DNA of 36,344 nt from a virus (lineage: Duplodnaviria; Heunggongvirae; Uroviricota; Caudoviricetes). A program made the translations under genes and the position numbers. Positions within the stretch are counted from its first letter, which is position 1. Each line of letters starts with the position of its first letter. Below, piece after piece: positions 3,590 through 34,114 of this stretch. The stretch is taken from IMG/VR virus record IMGVR_UViG_2541047905_000018, one strand, 5' to 3'. The notes beneath the pieces were generated by a model that was not told the origin of the DNA, made no database searches, and saw only the letters and a program-made list of their open reading frames with translations.

Positions 3590-4189
3590 TCAGAACTTAT
3601 AACCGACACCCACGATGAAACTGTTGGTACGCCAGTCACCGCTGCCGGAGCCTTCATAAGCGACATCAATGGCCACGGATTCGGTCGGGTTAAACTGCAC
3701 GCCAGCTCCCCACGCCAGAGACGTGTTGCTGTGGCGACCGTCATCACTTCCGGTCAGCACATCGTGCTTTTTCCCCTTGTTGTCAGTTACGCGGAGATAA
3801 TCCCCGGAGAAAGTCGACACACGGCTGTAAGCCACACCCACCATCGCATACGCGCTGAACCATTCATTCACGCGTACAGACGGCCCCGCCATCACGCTGA
3901 ACCAGCGGTTACGCACGGAATCTTCATGCCAGCGGGTATCGCTGTAGTGCGTTTTTTGCTCATCCTCAGCATTGGCATAACTGAAGGACGTAATCAGCCC
4001 CAGCGCGTCCGTAAACTCATAACGGTATTTCACGTTAATCCCGTTCAGATTATCGCTGCCGGGAGCGTTCGTACGGGCATGAAGATACCCCGCGCTCAGT
4101 GTGGACTGATGTTCAGACGCCCATGCAGGCGCACCGGATACGGACAGACAGATGGCTGCGGACAAAATGGCTGCACATAATTTACGCAT
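3590..4189 (-). CDS. lom: Lom/Ail/OmpX-family outer membrane protein
   Basis: 199 aa with a signal peptide (MRKLCAAILSAAICLSVSGAPAWA) and beta-barrel strands ending ...GVGYKF. Same position as lambda lom, after J. Confidence 0.9.
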   Translation of the reverse strand: MRKLCAAILSAAICLSVSGAPAWASEHQSTLSAGYLHARTNAPGSDNLNGINVKYRYEFTDALGLITSFSYANAEDEQKTHYSDTRWHEDSVRNRWFSVMAGPSVRVNEWFSAYAMVGVAYSRVSTFSGDYLRVTDNKGKKHDVLTGSDDGRHSNTSLAWGAGVQFNPTESVAIDVAYEGSGSGDWRTNSFIVGVGYKF

Positions 4190-4213
4190 AATTACCTCTC
4201 GCTTTTCTGCAAT

Positions 4214-4237
4214 AAAAAAGGCGCCATTTCTGGCGCC
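4214..4237 (-). terminator. rho-independent terminator after J
   Basis: The minus strand reads GGCGCCA-gaaa-TGGCGCC followed by T6. Confidence 0.6.
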
Positions 4238-19813: not shown

Positions 19814-21571
19814 TCACAGAATTAACAGGTCCTCATCAGGATCAAGCGTGGACAGAAAGTCATTCACGCCCCCGCCATTTACCAGAAAGCGGCTCATGGC
19901 TGTAAAAAGCGCAACAGGGCCGTCGATTTTGGCTTCCGGCGTGGATTTATTCGGGAAGATGTTGTCGTTTTTGTCCGGTTTTACAGTAACGTTAGACATC
20001 ATCCAGTTCATGACCGGATGATTGCTGTGATGGAAACGCCCGGCATAAACCAGTGATTCCGTTTCCTTCATGGCCTCTGACAGATTGCGGACCGTCTGCG
20101 GAACCTCCACCAGCGGTATCCCTTCTTCAGCCAGTGCCAGGCTGAACTGCATTGCGCTCCACGGGTCAAATCCCAGTTCCCTGAGGTTTTCACCGCCAAT
20201 CCATTCCAGTAAGTCACTTTTTATCTGAGCATGATCGATAACATCACCATCCGTCAGGATGAGCTTATCCATCTCCGCCCACTTCCGGTAAAGTTCTGCC
20301 TGCTGCCGCGAGCATCGCTCCAGCCGTCCTTCCGGAAGCCAGAATTTAAAATCAGCATGAACATGTCCGTTATCGGTTCGCCAGAGTTTTGCCGCCGCAC
20401 AGATATCAATCTTATGAGCAAGGTCTACGCCGACCCACATGGGATATGTTTTCAGCTCATGTTGTGGAGCAATGTATTCGCACTTCTCCCACTTAATCAT
20501 ATCCATCCAGGCAGATTCGGCAGTGACCCACACATTCATGTGTTTGGTAAAAAAATTCACCCGCGCAGAGACCTGCTCCTTCGCTTTTTTCGCCAGACGA
20601 CGCAGATCATCCCAGCGTTTACAGATGCCCAGGCCAGGATTCGCTTTCTGCCAGACCGTTTCATCAAACGGATCATCTCCCTCATCAAGCGTGTAAATGA
20701 TCGCAAAGTAAGAGTCGTCTTTTACAGCGCCCTCCACGTCGCTGTTATAGCCTCGCAATACCTTGATGGCGTAATCACGCTGCTCGTAACAAATCCCTTC
20801 CTTGTTAAAGCCAGCCGTGGTGATACCAAATAACAGGGACTGCAGACGGGCACCGGTTGCCGTTTCCAGAACGTCCCACACGTCGCGGGTTTTATGTGCA
20901 TGCAGCTCATCAATAATGGCGCAGTGGATGTTCAGACCGTCCAGGTTGTTTGCATCCGAGGAAAGCGGTTCAAATTTTGATGCGCTCTGCTCCTGGTAAA
21001 TCGCCAGCTTGTTGAAATCAAACAACCGCCCGAGTGTCGACCGGGCTTTTCTGACCATATTTTTGGCGTCTTCAAACACGATTCTGGCCTGGTCACGCGT
21101 GGTTGCGGCTGAATACACCTCAGCTCCGCCTTCACTATCTGCCCCCGTCATATACAGGCCGATACCCGATGACAGTGTTGATTTTGCGTTTTTACGGGCG
21201 ACTTCGTTGTACGCCGTCCGGAACCGGCGCACCATCACCGGACGTCCGCTGCCATCGCTGCGCATGACAACTTCCCCGGTTTCTTCATTGACCAGCGGAA
21301 TGACAAAACCAAAAATATTAATGAGGATAAATACATGCCAGTCCATCAACTCAATGGGCTGGCCTGCCAGTGCCCCTTTTACATGAGGCACAAATTTGTA
21401 GAAATTCAGGATGTGCTGCGCACGGGGTTCACTGAAATAAATCCCCCGCTTTTCGCCGTACTTCAGATCATCAAGAAAACGCTGGCAGGCCAGGCGGACA
21501 AATTCGCCAGCAACAATTTCTCCTGCAACAACACGTTCGGCGTAGCGGATCCCGTCAGCCACTTTTGCCAT
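19814..21571 (-). CDS. terminase large subunit
   Basis: 585 aa with a Terminase_1-type sequence. It has a 1-nt overlap with terS. Confidence 0.95.
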   Translation of the reverse strand: MAKVADGIRYAERVVAGEIVAGEFVRLACQRFLDDLKYGEKRGIYFSEPRAQHILNFYKFVPHVKGALAGQPIELMDWHVFILINIFGFVIPLVNEETGEVVMRSDGSGRPVMVRRFRTAYNEVARKNAKSTLSSGIGLYMTGADSEGGAEVYSAATTRDQARIVFEDAKNMVRKARSTLGRLFDFNKLAIYQEQSASKFEPLSSDANNLDGLNIHCAIIDELHAHKTRDVWDVLETATGARLQSLLFGITTAGFNKEGICYEQRDYAIKVLRGYNSDVEGAVKDDSYFAIIYTLDEGDDPFDETVWQKANPGLGICKRWDDLRRLAKKAKEQVSARVNFFTKHMNVWVTAESAWMDMIKWEKCEYIAPQHELKTYPMWVGVDLAHKIDICAAAKLWRTDNGHVHADFKFWLPEGRLERCSRQQAELYRKWAEMDKLILTDGDVIDHAQIKSDLLEWIGGENLRELGFDPWSAMQFSLALAEEGIPLVEVPQTVRNLSEAMKETESLVYAGRFHHSNHPVMNWMMSNVTVKPDKNDNIFPNKSTPEAKIDGPVALFTAMSRFLVNGGGVNDFLSTLDPDEDLLIL

Positions 21572-22053
21572 CAGTCTCTCGCTTTTAAAAGCTCTGCCAG
21601 CGGATCAACATTATCCGGTCCGGCGGTATTTACTTTTGCCCGGCTTGCCGGTGACATACCAAATTCTGCAAGCATCGCCCGGATCCGCTTCCAGGCATCC
21701 GCTTTCATCGCAGCAGCTGGGTGTGCCTTAATCAGCACATCACCGTTCTGCGTTTCCGAGCGGTAGGTGTACCCCTCAACATCGAGTGTTTCGCAGTGAT
21801 GCCGGTATTCGGTATAGGCTTCCACCAGTAGCTCAAGCGCACGCGCATCAAGCTGAGAAATGATCCCTTCCGCATTCAGCTCTTCCGCCATTCGCCTGAA
21901 CCAGTACTTCCCCTGCGCCCCTAAATGTTGCGGAATTTTAGGGAGACCTTTTTCATCCTTTTTAGCGGTTTTTTTGAGGTCTTTAACTGGCCGCTTTGAG
22001 GGGTTGCCTCGTATCAAATGCAGGCGTGGCGGGGTTTTCGGGGGTCCAGACAT
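21571..22053 (-). CDS. terminase small subunit, P27 family
   Basis: 160 aa. MSGPPKTPPRLHLIRGNPSKRP... is the typical P27-family TerS N-terminus. Confidence 0.85.
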   Translation of the reverse strand: MSGPPKTPPRLHLIRGNPSKRPVKDLKKTAKKDEKGLPKIPQHLGAQGKYWFRRMAEELNAEGIISQLDARALELLVEAYTEYRHHCETLDVEGYTYRSETQNGDVLIKAHPAAAMKADAWKRIRAMLAEFGMSPASRAKVNTAGPDNVDPLAELLKARD

Positions 22054-22282
22054 AATCGGTTTTACCTATCAATCATTTAATCACATTCCAAAAAAAAGTT
22101 TTCGAACCTGCGGCGATGCGAGGAAAGGTCAGGCGGCGGTACTGAGCAGCCTGGGTTGCAGAGATTTGATCCCCCCCCTCCCCCTTGAAGATGGCGGCAA
22201 AAAGCAGATACTGGCCACCCATCAGGATGCTCAGCATGGTGTATTCAGTTAATCTCAATAAATAAAAGATGGAGTCTAAGAA

Positions 22283-22798
22283 ATGGATAAAACCAGAAAA
22301 TATGACAGAGCCTTACAACTTGAAATCCTCAATGCCCTTATAGATTGCGCGCCTAACTCTTTAAACAAGGCACAGGAGCGAGACCTCATTGAGAAGTTTG
22401 ACAGTTACGATCACTTTGTGGCGTGCATGTTATACCTTGAAATGCATGGTCTCGTTTCCACCCCCTTCATACGCAGTGACACCATGGCTGGCGTTGAGTT
22501 TATCTTCTGTGCCCCTAACTGCTACATTACAGAAAAAGGAATTGATTTTCTTCTCGATGATGGCGGCTTAAGTGCGATCCTTAAAGTTCAGACCTTTCGG
22601 TTACACAGTGACACGATTGTTGCCCTTGAGGATATAATCCGTGTCGCAAATATATCTGAAGATCAGAAGAAGGGATTGATTTCAAAACTCCGAGAGCTTC
22701 CGGGAGACGCCATAAAACATTTGACCCTACAGTTACTGACTCAGGGGGTTCTGAATCTGCCGAACGCACTTCGACTAATTCAAACAACCCTCCAGTAG
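22283..22798 (+). CDS. unknown 171-aa protein, winged-helix-like N-terminal half (copy A1 of a duplicated module)
   Basis: Paralogue of the ORF at 33611-34114 (shared blocks YLE.HGL, IT..GIDF..DDGGL.AIL, LR.LP.DAIK.LT..LL.QG...LP....IQ..L). It lies opposite to the late operon. GGAG sits 8 nt upstream of the ATG. Confidence 0.7.
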   Translation: MDKTRKYDRALQLEILNALIDCAPNSLNKAQERDLIEKFDSYDHFVACMLYLEMHGLVSTPFIRSDTMAGVEFIFCAPNCYITEKGIDFLLDDGGLSAILKVQTFRLHSDTIVALEDIIRVANISEDQKKGLISKLRELPGDAIKHLTLQLLTQGVLNLPNALRLIQTTLQ

Positions 22799-22937
22799 GG
22801 CTAAACTCATCTGAGGGGCGAATTAACTCAAATTTGCCCCATCCCAGTTTTTCACTTAAAACAACCCAAAATCCCTCCCGGGTATCTGCATGAATATAGA
22901 AACTATTTTTATGCATTACAGCAGTGAATATTATCAT
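22581..22937 (-). CDS. unknown small protein (copy B1 of a duplicated module), translationally coupled to HNH
   Basis: Its ATG at 22937 overlaps the HNH stop (ATGA). The first ~77 aa are paralogous to the ORF at 33478-33771 (FW..LS...GWG.F.LIRP..EF...GGLFEL.E.R.AD...P..V..S.VLWR). Its 3' 218 nt overlap A1 on the opposite strand, and the true stop is uncertain. Confidence 0.55.
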   Translation of the reverse strand: MIIFTAVMHKNSFYIHADTREGFWVVLSEKLGWGKFELIRPSDEFSPTGGLFELVEVRSADSEPPESVTVGSNVLWRLPEALGVLKSIPSSDLQIYLRHGLYPQGQQSCHCVTERSEL

Positions 22938-23284
22938 CGAATACGTTCCCTTGCTGTCTTCTCTCTGTGGCATTCCCTGCATAACGACTCAAGATTGGAG
23001 TCATCATCGGTGCCGCCATGAGCTTTTGGAATCATGTGGTCTACAGTCCTGGCCTCAACGGCTCGTCCATTGCGCAGACAGTTCTTACACAGATGGTTAT
23101 CACGCTTCAGTATACGCGCACGTATAACATCCCATTTCGAGCCATAGCCACGCTGGTGGCGACTCAGTCCGCGTTGATGCTGTACCCATCCTTCACCACG
23201 ATGTTTATCGCAGTAACCAGAACTGTCTGTGGTTGTACCTGCGCATCCACGCTTACGGCAGGCACGTGGGATTCGTGATGGCAT
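22934..23284 (-). CDS. HNH endonuclease (terminase-associated)
   Basis: 116 aa with ...VDHMIPKAHGGTDDDSNLESLCRECHREKT... and Cys-rich flanks. HNH enzymes are the usual partner of HK97/P27-type terminases. Confidence 0.9.
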   Translation of the reverse strand: MPSRIPRACRKRGCAGTTTDSSGYCDKHRGEGWVQHQRGLSRHQRGYGSKWDVIRARILKRDNHLCKNCLRNGRAVEARTVDHMIPKAHGGTDDDSNLESLCRECHREKTARERIR

Positions 23285-25101: not shown

Positions 25102-25107
25102 GCATGT

Positions 25108-25137
25108 AAAAAGGCCCCAACACATGTGCGTGGGGCC
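25108..25137 (-). terminator. rho-independent terminator closing the 230-nt ORF-less unit downstream of the tRNAs
   Basis: The minus strand reads GGCCCCA-cgcacatgtgt-TGGGGCC followed by T5. Confidence 0.6.
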
Positions 25138-25167
25138 TGAGAGTATACATGGTTTCAGTCAACTGCA

Positions 25168-25189
25168 TGGTGCCGGGTGCCTCCCGGTG
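25168..25189 (-). repeat. 22-nt element CACCGGGAGGCACCCGGCACCA (copy 1, sense in the late transcript)
   Basis: Exact 22/22 match to 34354-34375 on the plus strand. It contains a CCGGG-aggca-CCCGG hairpin and tandem GGCACC. Confidence 0.8.
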
Positions 25190-25337
25190 AATTCAGTACC
25201 AGCACCTGAATCCGCGATTATCCCATATACCTACTCGCTGATTGCCCATCCGCACAGGGGGATTCACCATGCCAGTTTCTTTTAACAAACTCCCCGCAAA
25301 ACAGACAACTGTCAACCGTCTGAATTGTGAGACATTT

Positions 25338-25377: not shown

Positions 25378-25454
25378 TGGCGCGTTGTACTGGATTCGAA
25401 CCAGTGACCGATTGCTTAGAAGGCAATTGCTCTGTCCGGTTGAGCTAACAACGC
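25378..25454 (-). tRNA. tRNA-Arg (anticodon UCU)
   Basis: I folded the cloverleaf by hand: acceptor GCGTTGT/ACAACGC, D arm GCTC..GAGC, anticodon arm ATTGC-CTTCTAA-GCAAT, T arm ACTGG-TTCGAAT-CCAGT, CCA encoded. Confidence 0.9.
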
Positions 25455-25467
25455 AGGGTACAGATAA

Positions 25468-25544
25468 TGGACCGCCATCGAGGACTCGAACCCCGCGCAA
25501 CCAGCTTCGAAGGCTGGTGCTCTATCCTGATGAGCTAATGGCGG
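25468..25544 (-). tRNA. tRNA-Arg (anticodon UCG)
   Basis: Cloverleaf: acceptor CCGCCAT/ATGGCGG, anticodon arm CCAGC-CTTCGAA-GCTGG, T arm CGGGG-TTCGAGT-CCTCG, CCA encoded. Confidence 0.85.
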
Positions 25545-25551
25545 TATGTGA

Positions 25552-25627
25552 TGGTGGCCCTTGCTGGATTTGAACCAGCGACCTGGCGATTATGAGTCGC
25601 TCGCTCTCACCACTGAGCTAAAGGGCC
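25552..25627 (-). tRNA. tRNA with CAU anticodon (Met, or Ile2 if lysidine-modified; the ileZ-like position of Stx phages)
   Basis: Cloverleaf: acceptor GGCCCTT/AAGGGCC, anticodon arm GCGA-CTCATAA-TCGC, T arm GCTGG-TTCAAAT-CCAGC, CCA encoded. Confidence 0.85.
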
Positions 25628-29557: not shown

Positions 29558-30499
29558 TCACCCCCTGAATCCTTCCGGGATCTGGCTGTAGTCCACGTTG
29601 TCGTAACTGGCTTTGAAGTACGGGTCCTCACGTTTTTCTGTGTGCGTGCTGACGGACGGCGATAAGCGCAGGGAAAGCTCATCCCATTTTTCCCGCAACT
29701 TCGACGGGCTGAGCACGTTACGGCACCAGAACGGATCACGGCTGACGCGGCTGTACATCTCGCAGATTTGTTTGTGAGTACGACCATCCTGCACACACAT
29801 CAGGCGAATTTCGTTTGCCCATGCTGTCCAGTTCGGTTCTTTGGGACGAACCACCTCGCCGTCACATTCGGCGGCCTGCTCGTACAGGGCGATGATTTTT
29901 TTCCAGAGCCACTGTGCGCAGGTCAAATCATCCTGCGTTCCCCACTGGCGCTTTTTAGGGCTGAATACAACCGCATCAGGATGGCGAGTTAAAAAATCCT
30001 GTTCAGCCGTCTGCGTGTCCGGTTGCAAAGCGTCCGGACGAGAAGGTTTTTTATCTGACGGATCATGTTTTGATTTTACTGACGGATCCCCGCCAGATTC
30101 TGACGGGTGAAAACACGCTTTTTTGCCAGATTTCGACGCATCAAATTTTGACGGGTCAGATTTTGATGCGTCAGATTTTGACGGGTCAGAATCTGACAGT
30201 TGAGAAAATGCCGCAGCCTGAAGCTTCGCAACGTTAAGCTGATAAACATTCGACGCATTGCGGTTACCCTGGCGACGCGCCTTACGCGTTAACCAGCCTT
30301 CTGCTTCCAGCCGTGCGATAGCCGTTCTGACGGTACTCATCCCCGCGCCAATCTGGCGGGCAATGGTTTCAATTGATGGCCAGCACACACCCTCGTCATT
30401 ACTGAAATCAGCCAGACGGGCCATAATTGCCACACTGGATAATTTCATGCCTGACGCTGCGCAACCATCCCATACATAGCCGGTTAATTTGGTGCTCAC
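29558..30499 (-). CDS. replication initiator (HTH N-terminal domain, iterons inside the gene)
   Basis: 313 aa with an N-terminal wHTH (VCWPSIETIARQIGAGMSTVRTAIARLEAEGWL). The central PSKSD/ASKSD repeats are encoded by the iterons. Position is equivalent to lambda O. Confidence 0.8.
   Translation of the reverse strand: MSTKLTGYVWDGCAASGMKLSSVAIMARLADFSNDEGVCWPSIETIARQIGAGMSTVRTAIARLEAEGWLTRKARRQGNRNASNVYQLNVAKLQAAAFSQLSDSDPSKSDASKSDPSKFDASKSGKKACFHPSESGGDPSVKSKHDPSDKKPSRPDALQPDTQTAEQDFLTRHPDAVVFSPKKRQWGTQDDLTCAQWLWKKIIALYEQAAECDGEVVRPKEPNWTAWANEIRLMCVQDGRTHKQICEMYSRVSRDPFWCRNVLSPSKLREKWDELSLRLSPSVSTHTEKREDPYFKASYDNVDYSQIPEGFRG
30064..30200. repeat. origin-like iteron array (15-bp repeats, consensus TCAGATTTTGACGGG)
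   Basis: Five contiguous 15-mers at 30126-30200 (CCAGATTTCGACGCA, TCAAATTTTGACGGG, TCAGATTTTGATGCG, TCAGATTTTGACGGG, TCAGAATCTGACAGT). Degenerate copies lie near 30093 and 30071. Confidence 0.8.
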
Positions 30500-31053
30500 T
30501 TACGCACCTCCTTATGCTTTTCGTTCAGTTCCGAGTCCACCAGCCCGGCAACGAATACACCATCGTTGATGTAGTCGTAGAGCGATGAAGCCAGCGGAGA
30601 CTGAACTGAAACCAGCATCGGATAAAGTTGTTCTAACCAAACGCGGTGAATTTCAGCCATGTAGAGGTAAACAACGTGGGCATTGTGCGCGACACATGAA
30701 GTATCAACCTTTCCGATCAGCGCCTGTTCCATCTGGTTAAAGGCATTGATGTATGCCTCTTTGAACTGGGCAGCACGTTTACCCGTGAAACCCATAGCAA
30801 GAAACGCAAAGCCATCGCGGGTTATTTGATAGCAAGGTAGTTTGCGAGTACCGCCGTTGGGCTGGCGTACCAAAATTGATGTCTCCGCAAAATTGCGGGC
30901 ACAAAACTCTGGAGAACAATCCAAAATGCGAATCTTTTTCAGAACATCGTCATGACGTTTAGAGAAGAAGTCAGCAACAGCCAAAGAAGATGTAACAGCC
31001 TGACCATCAACGATGGCAATTTCAGGTTGAGAGAGGGTTGGGAGAGTAGTCAT
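30496..31053 (-). CDS. Rha-family phage regulatory protein
   Basis: From the ATG at 31053: MTTLPTLSQPEIAIVDGQAVTSSLAVADFFSKRHDDVLKKIRIL..., a typical Rha domain. The supplied ORF extends to 31353, but that extension contains terminator hairpins (see the leader feature at 31054-31330). Confidence 0.7.
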   Translation of the reverse strand: MTTLPTLSQPEIAIVDGQAVTSSLAVADFFSKRHDDVLKKIRILDCSPEFCARNFAETSILVRQPNGGTRKLPCYQITRDGFAFLAMGFTGKRAAQFKEAYINAFNQMEQALIGKVDTSCVAHNAHVVYLYMAEIHRVWLEQLYPMLVSVQSPLASSLYDYINDGVFVAGLVDSELNEKHKEVRK

Positions 31054-31330
31054 AGTGACAGCCCCGGTAGTCAGTTTTTTAGAAAACTCACCACATGGGA
31101 CGCCAATCACAGAGGTGGTGAGACGTACAGGGTTGGCGTTACCGGAGACTACCGAACCCGGCCCGACCGAAGTCGGCCCTGTACGCCCCACCATAATTTG
31201 GGCGTAGCAATGCTCATGACACGAAAAAACCGCATGAGCGCGGTTATGCTCAGTAATCAATTTCAGGACGCCAATCCCGGCAACGGATTTTGCCGCTGCC
31301 AGAACAATATAACGCCCAGAATTATCAGAA
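31054..31330 (-). promoter_or_regulatory. highly structured leader with intrinsic terminators upstream of rha and the replication gene (tR1-like region)
   Basis: On the minus strand: AACCGC-gctcat-GCGGTT followed by T6 (31224-31245); TACGCCC...GGGCGTA; a 9-bp stem CGTACAGGG/CCCTGTACG enclosing CCGAC-UUCG-GUCGG; and CTCACCAC...GTGGTGAG followed by TTTTCT (31081-31122). Confidence 0.55.
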
Positions 31331-31522
31331 TCAATCATTACTGGTTTGCTCATGATCGTCCCTTATCTCCCTGAACTTTTGCCTGAAATGCTCAAGCGGG
31401 CTGAAGCATTCATGTTCATAGCCTTCACGGAGGTAGATAACCCGTTGTGTTTCCGGCTCCCAACGAATGACTCTGACGGGCACTCCGTAGTGATCTTTGA
31501 ACCAGCGGTTAACTTGTCGCAA
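31331..31522 (-). CDS. DUF4222-like small protein
   Basis: ...[44 protein letters not shown] fits my recollection of DUF4222. The likely start is the TTG at 31522, with AAGGAG 8 nt upstream. The supplied ORF begins at a GTG at 31564. Confidence 0.5.
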
Positions 31523-31701
31523 AGGACTGTCTCCTTCTGCCGGTTGAAATCCCCCACAGCCCACTCTGCAAAGCAGTGGGTTACAATTTCCCTGTCACCT
31601 GGTACATTCACTGCATAGCAATACTCCACCTTCGCTTTTCCACCCGGTACAGGAAGCGCAATCAGTTGCGAGCGACGGTAGTGTGTTGTTAAACTGTTCA
31701 T
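31363..31701 (-). CDS. hypothetical protein, start-coupled to the CII-like gene; its 3' half overlaps the DUF4222 gene out of frame
   Basis: The ATG at 31701 overlaps the upstream stop (ATGA). The N-terminal ~55 aa look protein-like and the remainder looks like out-of-frame read-through. Confidence 0.35.
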
Positions 31702-32339
31702 GCGTTAGTTTCTCCACAACCAGAAGCAATCGACGCCACGACGCCCGGAGCTGCACACTCGCGGGCGTTACTCTTTTCCGGCGCACAAAAAACACGAAAT
31801 AACAGTGTTAAATGCTCCTGCCACTTCGCCATTACTTGGTAGCTGTTCTCTTCGATTTGCTCACGCTCAGCTTGGTCAATAACTCCATCAGCAGTTGCCT
31901 TGCGTAAGTACTGGGAATGCTTGCCAATCCATTCTATTGACTCCATCAGCCGCTGATTAATGTCACCATTGTCAATGTCATCAATGACCACCAGCGGCAC
32001 AAACACCCCATTACTACGACGGGCTATTGCATCCGTTACATGCCTGGTACCACTGGCATCCTGTAAAACCATGGCCCACTCAAGTGGAAAAATTTGATCC
32101 CCACCGCTACGCAGTCTGTTATGCAATTGATCTTTTGCTGGGGTGATATCATCAGATTTATACAAACCAAGAATTTCTGCTGCTTCCTCATAGCCATGAG
32201 GTAAATCAGCAATCGTTCTTCGTATTGCTGCCACCAGCCATGCTGGTTGCTTATCAACTTTCCATTCAGGTTCTTTACCCACGTTTAAGCCCTCATATCT
32301 GTGGTTTCTGTAAATCGATTTATCCATTAGATTTTTCAT
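31698..32339 (-). CDS. CII-like (CP76-type) regulatory protein, in the YdaT/CII position
   Basis: It directly follows the Cro-like gene. Its general pattern (..YEEAAEILG.....L.NRL.....[14 protein letters not shown]..) resembles the phage regulatory CII (CP76) family as I remember it. The start is uncertain (32339 or 32327). Confidence 0.45.
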
Positions 32340-32520
32340 AAAGCTCAGGTTTAAATGGCAACCGTCCGCAAGTTCTATATGCAGCCTCTGCTGCACGTCC
32401 TTTTGGAATTAACTGGCCAGGACGGTTTCGCCACTGATAAACGGCTTCAGTTGTTATGCCGAAAAAAGCAGCAACTTTCTCAATGCTGCCGAAGTAGCTT
32501 TCGATATCGTCAGTCGTCAT
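32320..32520 (-). CDS. Cro-like repressor of the DicC/P22-Cro type
   Basis: 66 aa. ..YFGSIEKVAAFFGITTEAVYQWRNRPGQLIPKGRAAE.. parallels DicC (YFGSKTKLAQAAGIRLASLYSWKGDLVPEGRAMR). GGAGGG is the SD. It is divergent from the CI gene. Confidence 0.8.
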   Translation of the reverse strand: MTTDDIESYFGSIEKVAAFFGITTEAVYQWRNRPGQLIPKGRAAEAAYRTCGRLPFKPELYEKSNG

Positions 32521-32617: not shown

Positions 32618-33244
32618 ATGGAAACGGTTGGTCAGCGTATAAAAGCTCTGAGAAGAGTTACCAGAACGTCCCAGAAAGAATTGGGTAAATTTTGTGGAGT
32701 AAGTGACGTTGCTGTGGGGTACTGGGAGAAAGACATCAATGTCCCTGGTGGGGAAGCACTTTCAAAATTAGCGAAGTTCTTCAATACGTCAATAGATTAC
32801 ATTCTTTATGGTGCGGAGTTTGAAGGCAAACTCGTCACAAACATGCGCAGAGTTCCTGTAATCTCGTGGGTTCAGGCTGGGCAGTTTACTGAGTGCAGGA
32901 CAGCAGAAGTGTTTAGTGAAGTAGACAAGTGGGTAGATACATCATTAAAGATTGGTGATAACTCATTTGCATTGGAGGTTAAAGGCGACTCCATGACTAA
33001 CCCTAACGGCCTCCCAACAATACCAGAAGGCGCAACAGTGATTGTAGATCCTGATGCAGAACCCCGGCATGGAAAAATAGTCATCGCTAGACTTGATGGA
33101 ACAAACGAAGCCACAGTAAAAAAATTAGTTATCGATGGCCCTCAAAAGTTTTTAGTGCCATTAAATCCCCGGTACCCCAACATCCCGATCAATGGTAATT
33201 GCCTCATCATTGGTGTAGTCAAAGGAGTTCAATACGAACTCTAG
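32618..33244 (+). CDS. cI: CI-type repressor (XRE HTH plus S24 LexA-like peptidase domain)
   Basis: 208 aa. N-terminal HTH (QKELGKFCGVSDVAVGYWEKD) and C-terminal S24 domain (VKGDSMTNP...ATVKKL Ser/Lys dyad). Confidence 0.9.
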   Translation: METVGQRIKALRRVTRTSQKELGKFCGVSDVAVGYWEKDINVPGGEALSKLAKFFNTSIDYILYGAEFEGKLVTNMRRVPVISWVQAGQFTECRTAEVFSEVDKWVDTSLKIGDNSFALEVKGDSMTNPNGLPTIPEGATVIVDPDAEPRHGKIVIARLDGTNEATVKKLVIDGPQKFLVPLNPRYPNIPINGNCLIIGVVKGVQYEL

Positions 33245-33266: not shown

Positions 33267-33299
33267 CACCGAACTAAGAAAAGTTTGGTGTTTTCTCTT
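33267..33299 (+). terminator. rho-independent terminator after cI
   Basis: CACCGAAC-taagaaaa-GTTTGGTG (one G-U pair) followed by TTTTCTCTT. Confidence 0.5.
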
Positions 33300-33326
33300 G
33301 CCATCAAAACTAAGTTAAGTTAGATT
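33298..33326 (+). promoter_or_regulatory. candidate pL (TTGCCA-17 nt-TAGATT) with an OL-like operator in the spacer
   Basis: The operator-like ACTAAGTTAAGTTAGA at 33309-33324 lies between the -35 and -10 elements. It shares its half-site with the OR sites. Confidence 0.55.
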
Positions 33327-33409: not shown

Positions 33410-33432
33410 AAAAAAGCGCCCTACAGGACGCT
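33410..33432 (-). terminator. minus-strand terminator beyond the 5' end of the 97-aa gene (would end the A2 transcript)
   Basis: The minus strand reads AGCGTCC-tgtag-GGCGCT (one bulged base) followed by T6. Confidence 0.5.
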
Positions 33433-33477
33433 TAGCTCTTTAACAATCTTGGTATCCCCGTAACAAAAGAGGGTTCT

Positions 33478-33771
33478 ATGGTCATATTCTGTGCTTACGT
33501 TCATCCTAATGGATTTTTTATCAGCACCAACCAACAAGACGAATTCTGGATTCTACTTAGTAAGCAGGTCGGATGGGGACGATTCTGTCTAATCCGACCA
33601 GAATCAGAATTTACAGAGAATGGAGGGCTTTTTGAATTACGTGAAATACGTCCGGCAGATGGTCAAGCCCCTGACCAAGTAATCGAATCGTCAGCTGTTT
33701 TATGGCGTCGGCAGGAAGCGTTCGAAGCTGAGAGAGTAATTTCTTCTTATCTTCAGTCGTGGCAGAAGTAG
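33478..33771 (+). CDS. unknown 97-aa protein (copy B2 of the duplicated module), first ORF after pL
   Basis: GAGGG SD 5 nt upstream. Paralogue of 22581-22937. Differences between the copies in the non-overlapped part fall mainly at third codon positions. Confidence 0.65.
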   Translation: MVIFCAYVHPNGFFISTNQQDEFWILLSKQVGWGRFCLIRPESEFTENGGLFELREIRPADGQAPDQVIESSAVLWRRQEAFEAERVISSYLQSWQK

Positions 33772-34114
33772 AACTATTGATGATACGTTCAAGTTCACAG
33801 AGAGTCTCATCATGCAATCTTATTGTCATAATCCCAAGAATAGCTTTAAGACCTCCATCATCACGAATGAAATCAATTCCATCTTTAGTAATTCTTAATT
33901 CAGGAATATTTATATTTATGCCATCCAAGTAATAATCAAGAGCATTCTTAATCAAGCCATGTTCTTCGAGATAAATTAAGTTCGAAATTAGGACATTATC
34001 ATCTCCAAATGCGTCACGAACAGACTGCAACGCATCATCAGAAATTTCATAAGGATGAGCATCATACAGTATTTGTAACAACTGCCTTTGTGCACTTCTA
34101 TCAAATTTGTCCAT
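33611..34114 (-). CDS. unknown 167-aa protein, winged-helix-like N-terminal half (copy A2 of the duplicated module)
   Basis: Paralogue of 22283-22798. It is convergent with B2 and overlaps it by 161 nt. A candidate promoter TTGATA-16 nt-GATTAT ends 5 nt before the ATG, so the mRNA may be leaderless. Confidence 0.7.
   Translation of the reverse strand: MDKFDRSAQRQLLQILYDAHPYEISDDALQSVRDAFGDDNVLISNLIYLEEHGLIKNALDYYLDGININIPELRITKDGIDFIRDDGGLKAILGIMTIRLHDETLCELERIINSSTSATTEDKKKLLSQLRTLPADAIKQLTIRLLGQGLDHLPDVFHVIQKALHSL

Follow-up and report, generated by a model that had tools for sequence, protein, structure and literature searches.

A convergent, overlapping gene pair in an Escherichia coli prophage is one copy of a mobile cassette of temperate phages

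Why should a prophage encode two proteins on opposite strands of the same DNA, and do so among its packaging genes? The question is raised by a lambdoid, HK97-like Escherichia coli prophage, IMG/VR record IMGVR_UViG_2541047905_000018, whose 36,344 nucleotides (nt) are called the window here. Its late operon lies on the minus strand. Between the genes for an HNH endonuclease and the small terminase subunit (terS), an original prediction made from the letters alone had noted a convergent pair of open reading frames (ORFs), A1 and B1, as a second, diverged copy of another pair, A2 and B2, elsewhere in the window. The questions are whether B is a gene, how the pair came to lie where it does, and what A and B might do. 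Temperate phages carry a mobile accessory cassette (moron), and A1/B1 represents one copy of it.

Two genes on complementary strands

The first copy is laid out as follows.

22283-22798, plus strand: A1, an ORF with an ATG start, 171 amino acids (aa)
22581-22937, minus strand: B1, 118 aa, the ATG at 22937 being the start backed by homologues
22671-22798, both strands: conserved dual-coding core, 128 nt, with A and B both under purifying selection

A1 was recovered exactly as predicted, and the two genes converge to share 22581-22798, the 218 nt of antisense overlap that the original prediction had given. The open frame holding B1 spans 22581-22982 on the minus strand. An ATG at 22982 was considered as the start and dropped; homologues start at the methionine of an MxIF motif (MIIF or MKIF).

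One possibility is that B is non-functional, the antisense ORF being a by-product of the A sequence or of a constraint on RNA or DNA (a terminator or an antisense RNA). Gene callers have left B out: it was uncalled by the Prokaryotic Genome Annotation Pipeline (PGAP) in the 4/4 RefSeq loci inspected, and by the depositors in the records inspected, those of Escherichia phage PhiR49_2 and Edwardsiella phage GF-2. The overlapped part of B alone also has a ratio of nonsynonymous to synonymous substitution rates (dN/dS) of ~0.9, a value that is uninformative because A constrains the same DNA. Against this possibility stands the non-overlapped part of B (43 codons, 47 distinct B genes), which the original prediction had named as the place to measure selection. 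Its median dN/dS is 0.09, and its codon-position diversity is 0.29/0.21/0.53, third positions being the most variable. On the A side, third-position diversity is 0.42-0.59 over residues 1-122, with 0.48-0.59 at residues 13-122, and 0.15-0.17 over residues 133-162, a fall from ~0.55 to ~0.15 exactly opposite the conserved core of B. In this phase A third positions pair with B second positions.

Nor does A force the B frame to stay open. In a recoding test each A protein was held fixed and synonymous codons were redrawn from A's own usage. Just 0.18% of trials left the B frame open over 42 codons or more (mean, 10.7 open codons), and the observed B frames had 41-75 open codons in 54/54 distinct A genes. 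Because the dN/dS values, the drop in A third-position diversity and the recoding test all agree, the sequence evidence identifies B as a real protein gene and the overlap as dual-coding, with purifying selection on both genes.

Other observations point the same way. An ATG stands at the conserved B start in 84/94 loci where both genes are full, with a Shine-Dalgarno (SD) sequence before it, and a β-barrel is predicted confidently for the protein. A profile search of the whole library gave 91 B-family representatives at 50% clustering. A non-functional B is already largely refuted, and we give it next to no credence.

Long antisense overlaps with purifying selection on both frames are very rare in bacteria and phages and are usually disputed. 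A/B is a clean natural model for dual coding, because three independent tests agree and the arrangement is conserved across many lineages. Gene callers had hidden the whole B family, at least 91 representatives at that clustering level.

Distribution, insertion and the two copies

The pair is not confined to this prophage; it is a conserved cassette across Enterobacterales phages and beyond. A has 194 homologous clusters, mostly in Enterobacterales. A convergent match to the B profile was found over the A 3' end in 97/109 fetched A-homologue loci, and in 94/94 loci where A and B are both full the genes are convergent, keep an identical frame relation and overlap by 128-230 nt, a regularity well beyond what chance would give. 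A B member ~27% identical to B1, placed last in a VapE/DUF6441 operon, again converges on and overlaps an A homologue. In A homologues whose C-terminus differs (e.g. loci L020, L022, L026, L028 and L099) B is missing, and an entire A subfamily is without B. Intact B beside a disrupted A was found in at least 5 independent loci (L010, L019, L018, L078/L080 and L101), and an intact A that has lost B was found in L015, L106 and L109.

The cassette lies between HNH and terS in 27 loci. Elsewhere it lies past GT2 upstream of HNH, past Rha, past cI/pL, past the tape-measure gene, past the VapE operon or inside an immI-like region. The recognised upstream neighbours (HNH, GT2, Rha, cI and Q) are on the B strand in all loci except L094, and A opposes them. 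In 49/66 distinct contexts the B start lies at most 30 nt from, or overlaps, the stop of the upstream ORF on the same strand; where the B start abuts the preceding stop there is therefore no room for a B promoter of its own. In GF-2, A is translationally coupled downstream of a Mnt/Arc-like regulator, divergent from arc-ant, and B is present though unannotated.

The junction occupied by the first copy is bounded by three features.

22934-23284, minus strand: HNH endonuclease, 116 aa (Pfam PF01844, E 9e-16)
21571-22053, minus strand: terS, small terminase subunit (P27 family), the downstream neighbour (Pfam PF05119, E 5e-25; name from PGAP)
22054-22185, no strand assigned: intergenic segment adjoining terS, presumed cos region, kept in the cassette-free phages phi467 and vB_EcoS-640R1 (640R1) and forming the left edge of the insertion

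Pfam thus confirmed both of the neighbours between which the pair had been described as wedged. Bases 22937-22934, read on the minus strand, are ATGA, in which the B1 ATG overlaps the HNH TGA. This overlap and the upstream neighbours on the B strand bear out the description of B1 as coupled to HNH and running along the lytic operon with A opposed, and translational coupling of B1 to HNH is supported by the sequence.

The insertion at the packaging junction that had been proposed was borne out by relatives. HNH stands directly beside cos/terS in phi467 and 640R1, and the HNH-terS gap is ~148 nt in these and other relatives, from which the cassette is absent. The original prediction had suggested that such a comparison would define the boundaries. 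In a three-way alignment the window, phi467 and 640R1 are collinear to ~22185 and again from ~23010. The right boundary lies inside HNH, and the last ~75 nt of that gene (22934 to ~23010), which diverge from cassette-free phages, therefore arrived with the cassette. The HNH protein is intact, the difference being limited to its last ~20 residues. The inserted DNA, ~0.75 kb, consists of the cassette and this replaced, diverged HNH 3' end. A copy in another context (L005) is 78% identical to 22283-22937, a match bounded by the start codons of A and B. The guanine plus cytosine (GC) content of the cassette is 0.43 against 0.52-0.53 in the flanks; the two copies have 0.43 and 0.39 against 0.51 for the window. 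Absence from the same junction in phi467 and 640R1, lower GC content and several other positions are all marks of a moron, and the own promoter that a moron would carry is a putative one, described below. The segment 22054-23330 is 99.9% identical to PhiR49_2.

Insertion between HNH and terS raises the possibility that B1 is an accessory to cos cleavage by HNH and terminase. B1 is ATGA-coupled to HNH in 27 loci, and a Sutterella prophage has the same layout. However, the cassette also lies past GT2, Rha, cI/pL, the tape-measure gene and the VapE/DUF6441 operon, close relatives package without it, and the Sutterella ORF has no detectable homology to B. We regard a packaging role as very unlikely.

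In the Sutterella wadsworthensis locus (L029, 3446-5092), part of a betaproteobacterial prophage, terS is accompanied by an A-like gene in the opposite orientation, whose 3' end is overlapped by a 119-aa ORF. This ORF is ATGA-coupled to the HNH stop, as in the first copy. It was tried as a B homologue and rejected, the hhalign probability being 2%.

The second copy lies directly downstream of cI (32618-33244).

33611-34114, minus strand: A2, 167 aa
33478-33771, plus strand: B2, 97 aa, overlapping A2 by 161 nt, the first ORF past a pL-like promoter

Pairwise alignment, the check proposed for this copy, gave significant similarity for A and B alike. A1 and A2 are 39% identical over 168 aa (E 4e-35) and B1 and B2 are 48% identical over 90 aa (E 4e-32), as expected if one convergent pair is present as two diverged copies. 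The codon phase is also the same, the start-to-start distances of 654 nt and 636 nt both being divisible by 3. The original prediction had called the copies old paralogues and not a recent duplication. The divergence held; the paralogy within the phage did not, the copies being subfamilies acquired separately.

The distribution of the two types is the basis for this. Among 5426 complete E. coli genomes the A1/B1 type is found in 28, beside HNH in 27 of them, and the A2/B2 type in 77, with one inspected locus (L007) beside cI. Only 2/107 genomes with any copy have the cassette in two places. No complete genome covers >85% of the 13-kb stretch spanning the two copies, and PhiR49_2 has A1/B1 and lacks A2. 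The few two-place genomes, and PhiR49_2 with A1/B1 alone, therefore indicate that the two copies are separately acquired subfamily members and not an internal duplication. Judged from these genomes, the two copies seldom reside together, and where they do, mosaic recombination rather than a conserved design accounts for it.

Predicted proteins and a possible antagonism between lysogenic and lytic genes

A belongs to phrog_3983, a family labelled as of unknown function (A1, E 1e-56, positions 2-164 of 165; A2, E 3e-59). A1 is predicted to fold as an acidic N-terminal winged-helix (~residues 1-92) and a C-terminal bundle of four helices (residues 109-170). The winged-helix is followed by a poorly ordered linker, adjoining the near-invariant motif GIDFxxDDGGLxAILxVQT. 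The winged-helix is fast-evolving and has a median net charge of -5 (range, -9 to -1), which is unusual for a DNA binder. Fold matches are to winged-helix regulators. The Pfam match to YjcQ (E 0.18) is below the cut-off, the best family member reaching 8e-4. Matches of the A sequence to the MarR, PadR, YjcQ and PhiH1-repressor winged-helix proteins fall below family thresholds; A differs from these proteins in its acidic domain, and they have no counterpart of its C-terminal helical domain or of the DDGGL motif.

The C-terminal helices of A1 (residues 117-141) gave weak, repeated matches to the three-helix bundle of the staphylococcal protein A B-domain (Pfam E 0.1; single-domain E in PDB ~0.3). 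Because of the single-domain E of ~0.3 we treat the likeness as an analogy, probably convergent.

B1 is predicted to form a five-strand β-barrel (residues 1-62), followed by a conserved helix, NVLWRLPEAL, and a variable tail. The AlphaFold2 model of B has a predicted local distance difference test score (pLDDT) of ~88 over residues 1-65. The protein is acidic and soluble, with an isoelectric point of 5.8. Neither B1 and B2 nor 63 B-family members had a match in Pfam, NCBIfam, PHROGs or PADLOC, and B had no significant fold neighbour and no sequence-profile match in PDB. Rfam has no family inside the cassette. The most conserved segments of A and of B are those encoded by the shared DNA.

This last finding would suit a reading in which A and B work together as subunits of a regulator or developmental accessory of the phage, such as one tied to immunity or antirepressor control, the overlap being compaction frozen by dual coding. 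Strict co-inheritance of A and B fits it as well, as do the frequent neighbours (Rha, Ant, KilA-N or Bro-type regulators, cI and mnt/arc/ant). The opposite orientation, with B locked in lytic operons, implies instead that the genes are under different transcriptional control. Each gene also persists alone, in A-only subfamilies and in loci with one intact partner, and antisense overlaps of 128-230 nt rarely arise by compaction. We consider cooperating subunits unlikely, if still a reading to be kept in mind.

Control of the two genes can be considered from three sets of signals.

22186-22282, plus strand: region upstream of A1, within the insertion, with ACTG at 22210-22213, TCAGGATG at 22222-22229, a -10-like TAATCT at 22250-22255 and the SD GGAG at 22271-22274
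33298-33326, plus strand: putative pL-like promoter, TTGCCA-17-TAGATT, proposed from a consensus match and shared repeats, the operator-like ACTAAG..TTAG repeats occurring also between cI and cro
33414-33433, minus strand: hairpin and T-run resembling an intrinsic terminator, on the A2 strand and beyond the B2 start

ACTG-N8-TCAGGATG, a -10-like TAnnCT and an SD recur upstream of A in several contexts (e.g. L054, L071 and L064), and, judged from its sequence, 22186-22282 is probably where a promoter belonging to A itself lies. In many contexts a strong B-strand terminator hairpin with a T-run lies just beyond these elements. An A promoter, an A operator and a B-strand transcript end were all considered for them. 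Terminator-like matches inside B1 were weak, lay within coding sequence and were set aside. In the second copy, the co-orientation of B2 with the pL operon that had been predicted was found, B2 being the first ORF after the pL-like promoter with its cI-operator-like repeats. An A2 transcript running to the A2-strand terminator, past the B2 start, would cover the full B2 ORF and its ribosome-binding site in antisense.

A precedent exists for a prophage accessory gene with an overlapping antisense partner. In the Tha/Ith 'noncontiguous operon' of Staphylococcus aureus prophages a small gene runs antisense to, and overlaps, a gene expressed in the lysogen (Rostol et al. 2024, PMC11087260). The product of the small gene switches off Tha on induction, transcriptional interference contributes, and the small gene was misannotated for years (PMC11087260). 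By analogy, the reading that we favour, tentatively and at rather less than an even chance, is that A/B is a life-cycle-gated antagonistic pair, in which A acts in the lysogen and B, made from the lytic operon, silences or neutralises A. A weak promoter of its own would drive A in the direction opposed to the neighbouring lytic operon, so that A would build up in the lysogen and carry out the function of the cassette there; keeping out other phages, or defending against them, is the most plausible such function. Synthesis of B would depend entirely on the firing of that operon, from pR'/late transcription through HNH in the first copy and from pL in the second. A would then be shut down by transcription from the two sides and by pairing of the RNAs where they overlap, and the B protein would neutralise the A already made, probably by binding. 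The resident phage would thereby escape its own cassette.

Several observations are consistent with such an antagonistic pair. The classic moron positions, the low GC content and an A2 transcript antisense to all of B2 make A look like a lysogen-expressed gene. Expression in the lysogen is also suggested by GF-2, because A is coupled there to the Mnt/Arc-like regulator, divergent from arc-ant. Evidence for co-transcription of cI and A, from a tblastn census that placed cI to the left of A on the A strand in L011 and L096, was dropped because the ~1.7 kb inspected ahead of A in L011 has no cI.

Other observations weigh against the antagonistic pair. A has no recognisable enzymatic or effector domain, and no HEPN or nuclease domain in Pfam or PADLOC. 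In PADLOC-DB v2, A1, B1 and B2 were without a match and A2 gave only CARF_m5 (E 0.013). The acid charge argues against simple DNA binding by A, without indicating how A acts. A consensus promoter scan upstream of A1 gave no sigma-70 site at 9/12, a reading of -35 and -10 elements by eye gave just the recurrent TAnnCT, and the GF-2 context is a single case. Finally, the first copy would yield B late, its B gene being part of the late operon. With Tha/Ith, an inhibitor expressed late came too late to rescue induction (PMC11087260), and B1 may therefore serve another purpose.

The same arrangement could be read as a toxin-antitoxin or addiction module. B would be a small toxic protein, and A and its antisense mRNA would keep B silent in the lysogen, like the type I 3' overlap of Bacillus prophages. 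The cassette is prophage-borne and mobile, its genes have a convergent 3' overlap of at least 128 nt, the predicted A2 transcript spans all of B2 and its ribosome-binding site, and the winged-helix of A is a fold used by many antitoxins and regulators. If A were the antidote, however, intact B beside a frameshifted or truncated A, as in at least 5 independent loci, would be lethal, and a toxin coupled so tightly within strong lytic operons would be made in bulk. We find a toxic B and an antitoxic A disfavoured, and quite improbable, because loci with intact B and broken A and loci with A only both exist; an effector A and an inhibitor B are compatible with both kinds of locus.

Known toxin-antitoxin loci differ in other ways. 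The type I loci txpA/RatA and bsrG/SR4 of Bacillus prophages have a convergent 3' overlap of ~100 nt and pair a small hydrophobic toxin peptide with a non-coding RNA. A/B resembles them in being convergent, 3'-overlapping units on prophages, but A (171 aa) and B are both conserved soluble proteins, which does not fit type I. The co-directional bicistronic operon and the recognisable toxin fold of type II loci are both absent from the cassette. The rest of the probability belongs to something unforeseen.

The antagonistic pair that we favour resembles Tha/Ith in having a small overlapping antisense gene in a prophage (94/94 loci, 128-230 nt). The differences are considerable. Tha is a HEPN RNase, whereas A is a predicted winged-helix with a helical bundle and no HEPN or nuclease domain, and neither A nor B is related in sequence or fold to the Tha/Ith proteins. 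A constitutive promoter of its own drives ith; B instead forms part of lytic operons. In A/B, selection acts on both strands of a shared stretch of at least 128 nt that encodes part of each protein. The Tha/Ith logic was demonstrated experimentally, and for A/B it is proposed from the sequence.

The position downstream of the repressor gene cI is a reported site of prophage defence genes (rexAB, sieB and BstA), and the second copy lies immediately downstream of cI. BstA self-immunity reportedly resides in a DNA element inside bstA and not in the protein. A/B has no homology to BstA/aba and is also found in late-operon positions. BstA is reported to be accompanied by a cognate self-immunity of the resident phage (Owen et al., bioRxiv 10.1101/2020.07.13.199331).

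A further likeness is to the P22-type immI (mnt/arc-ant) region, an accessory immunity region among late genes with antisense control. In GF-2, A would share a transcript with the Mnt/Arc-like regulator and lies divergent from arc-ant. Neither A nor B has homology to Mnt, Arc or Ant, and most copies are not beside an immI region.

Literature searches by protein accession, PHROG identifier and phage name gave nothing on the A/B cassette. The novelty lies in two protein families, in an antisense dual coding that is both deep and conserved, and in how the cassette is distributed. In its fullest form, which we think doubtful, the proposal is an undescribed, widespread prophage switch. A would be a lysogen exclusion or defence factor whose fast-evolving acidic winged-helix senses incoming phages, and B a lytic-only β-barrel that binds A through the segments encoded on complementary strands, while the transcripts silence each other. 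If an antagonistic pair is the right reading, a Tha/Ith-type solution, by which a prophage carries a phage-harming factor without self-harm, would also exist in Gram-negative phages, with unrelated proteins. A/B would then be a new candidate pair for defence and self-immunity in known moron positions of prophages.

Other features of the prophage

Two annotations touch the packaging junction. In the PhiR49_2 GenBank record (PV340570, L001) HNH is unannotated, and a 61-aa ORF on the opposite strand is called at 4040-4225 instead (window ~23090-23280); this call is likely an annotation error. PGAP calls a 54-aa hypothetical protein, WP_154675861, at 22073-22237 on the minus strand of the window, straddling the boundary at ~22185. 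It is probably spurious, because half of it is conserved cos-region DNA and half is cassette.

The immunity region near the second copy (31698-32520, minus strand) looks Rac-like by eye, with a YdaS/Cro-like gene of 66 aa and then a YdaT-like gene of 232 aa, rather than like lambda cro-cII. No N-like gene was seen by eye in this region, and B2 occupies the first position after pL. Rfam places a C4 antisense RNA and the Hfq-binding small RNA (sRNA) isrK at 31111-31198 and 31223-31299, both on the minus strand. These sites lie at the 5' end of a 285-aa ORF (30496-31353, minus strand) that is antirepressor-like by eye. Together they suggest an RNA-controlled antirepressor module of the P1/P7 immI type or the Gifsy isrK/anrP type in the early-right operon.

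Upstream of the lysis genes, 25102-25301 and 25378-25627 on the minus strand hold the sRNA STnc100 and then tRNA-Arg(tct), tRNA-Arg(tcg) and tRNA-Met.

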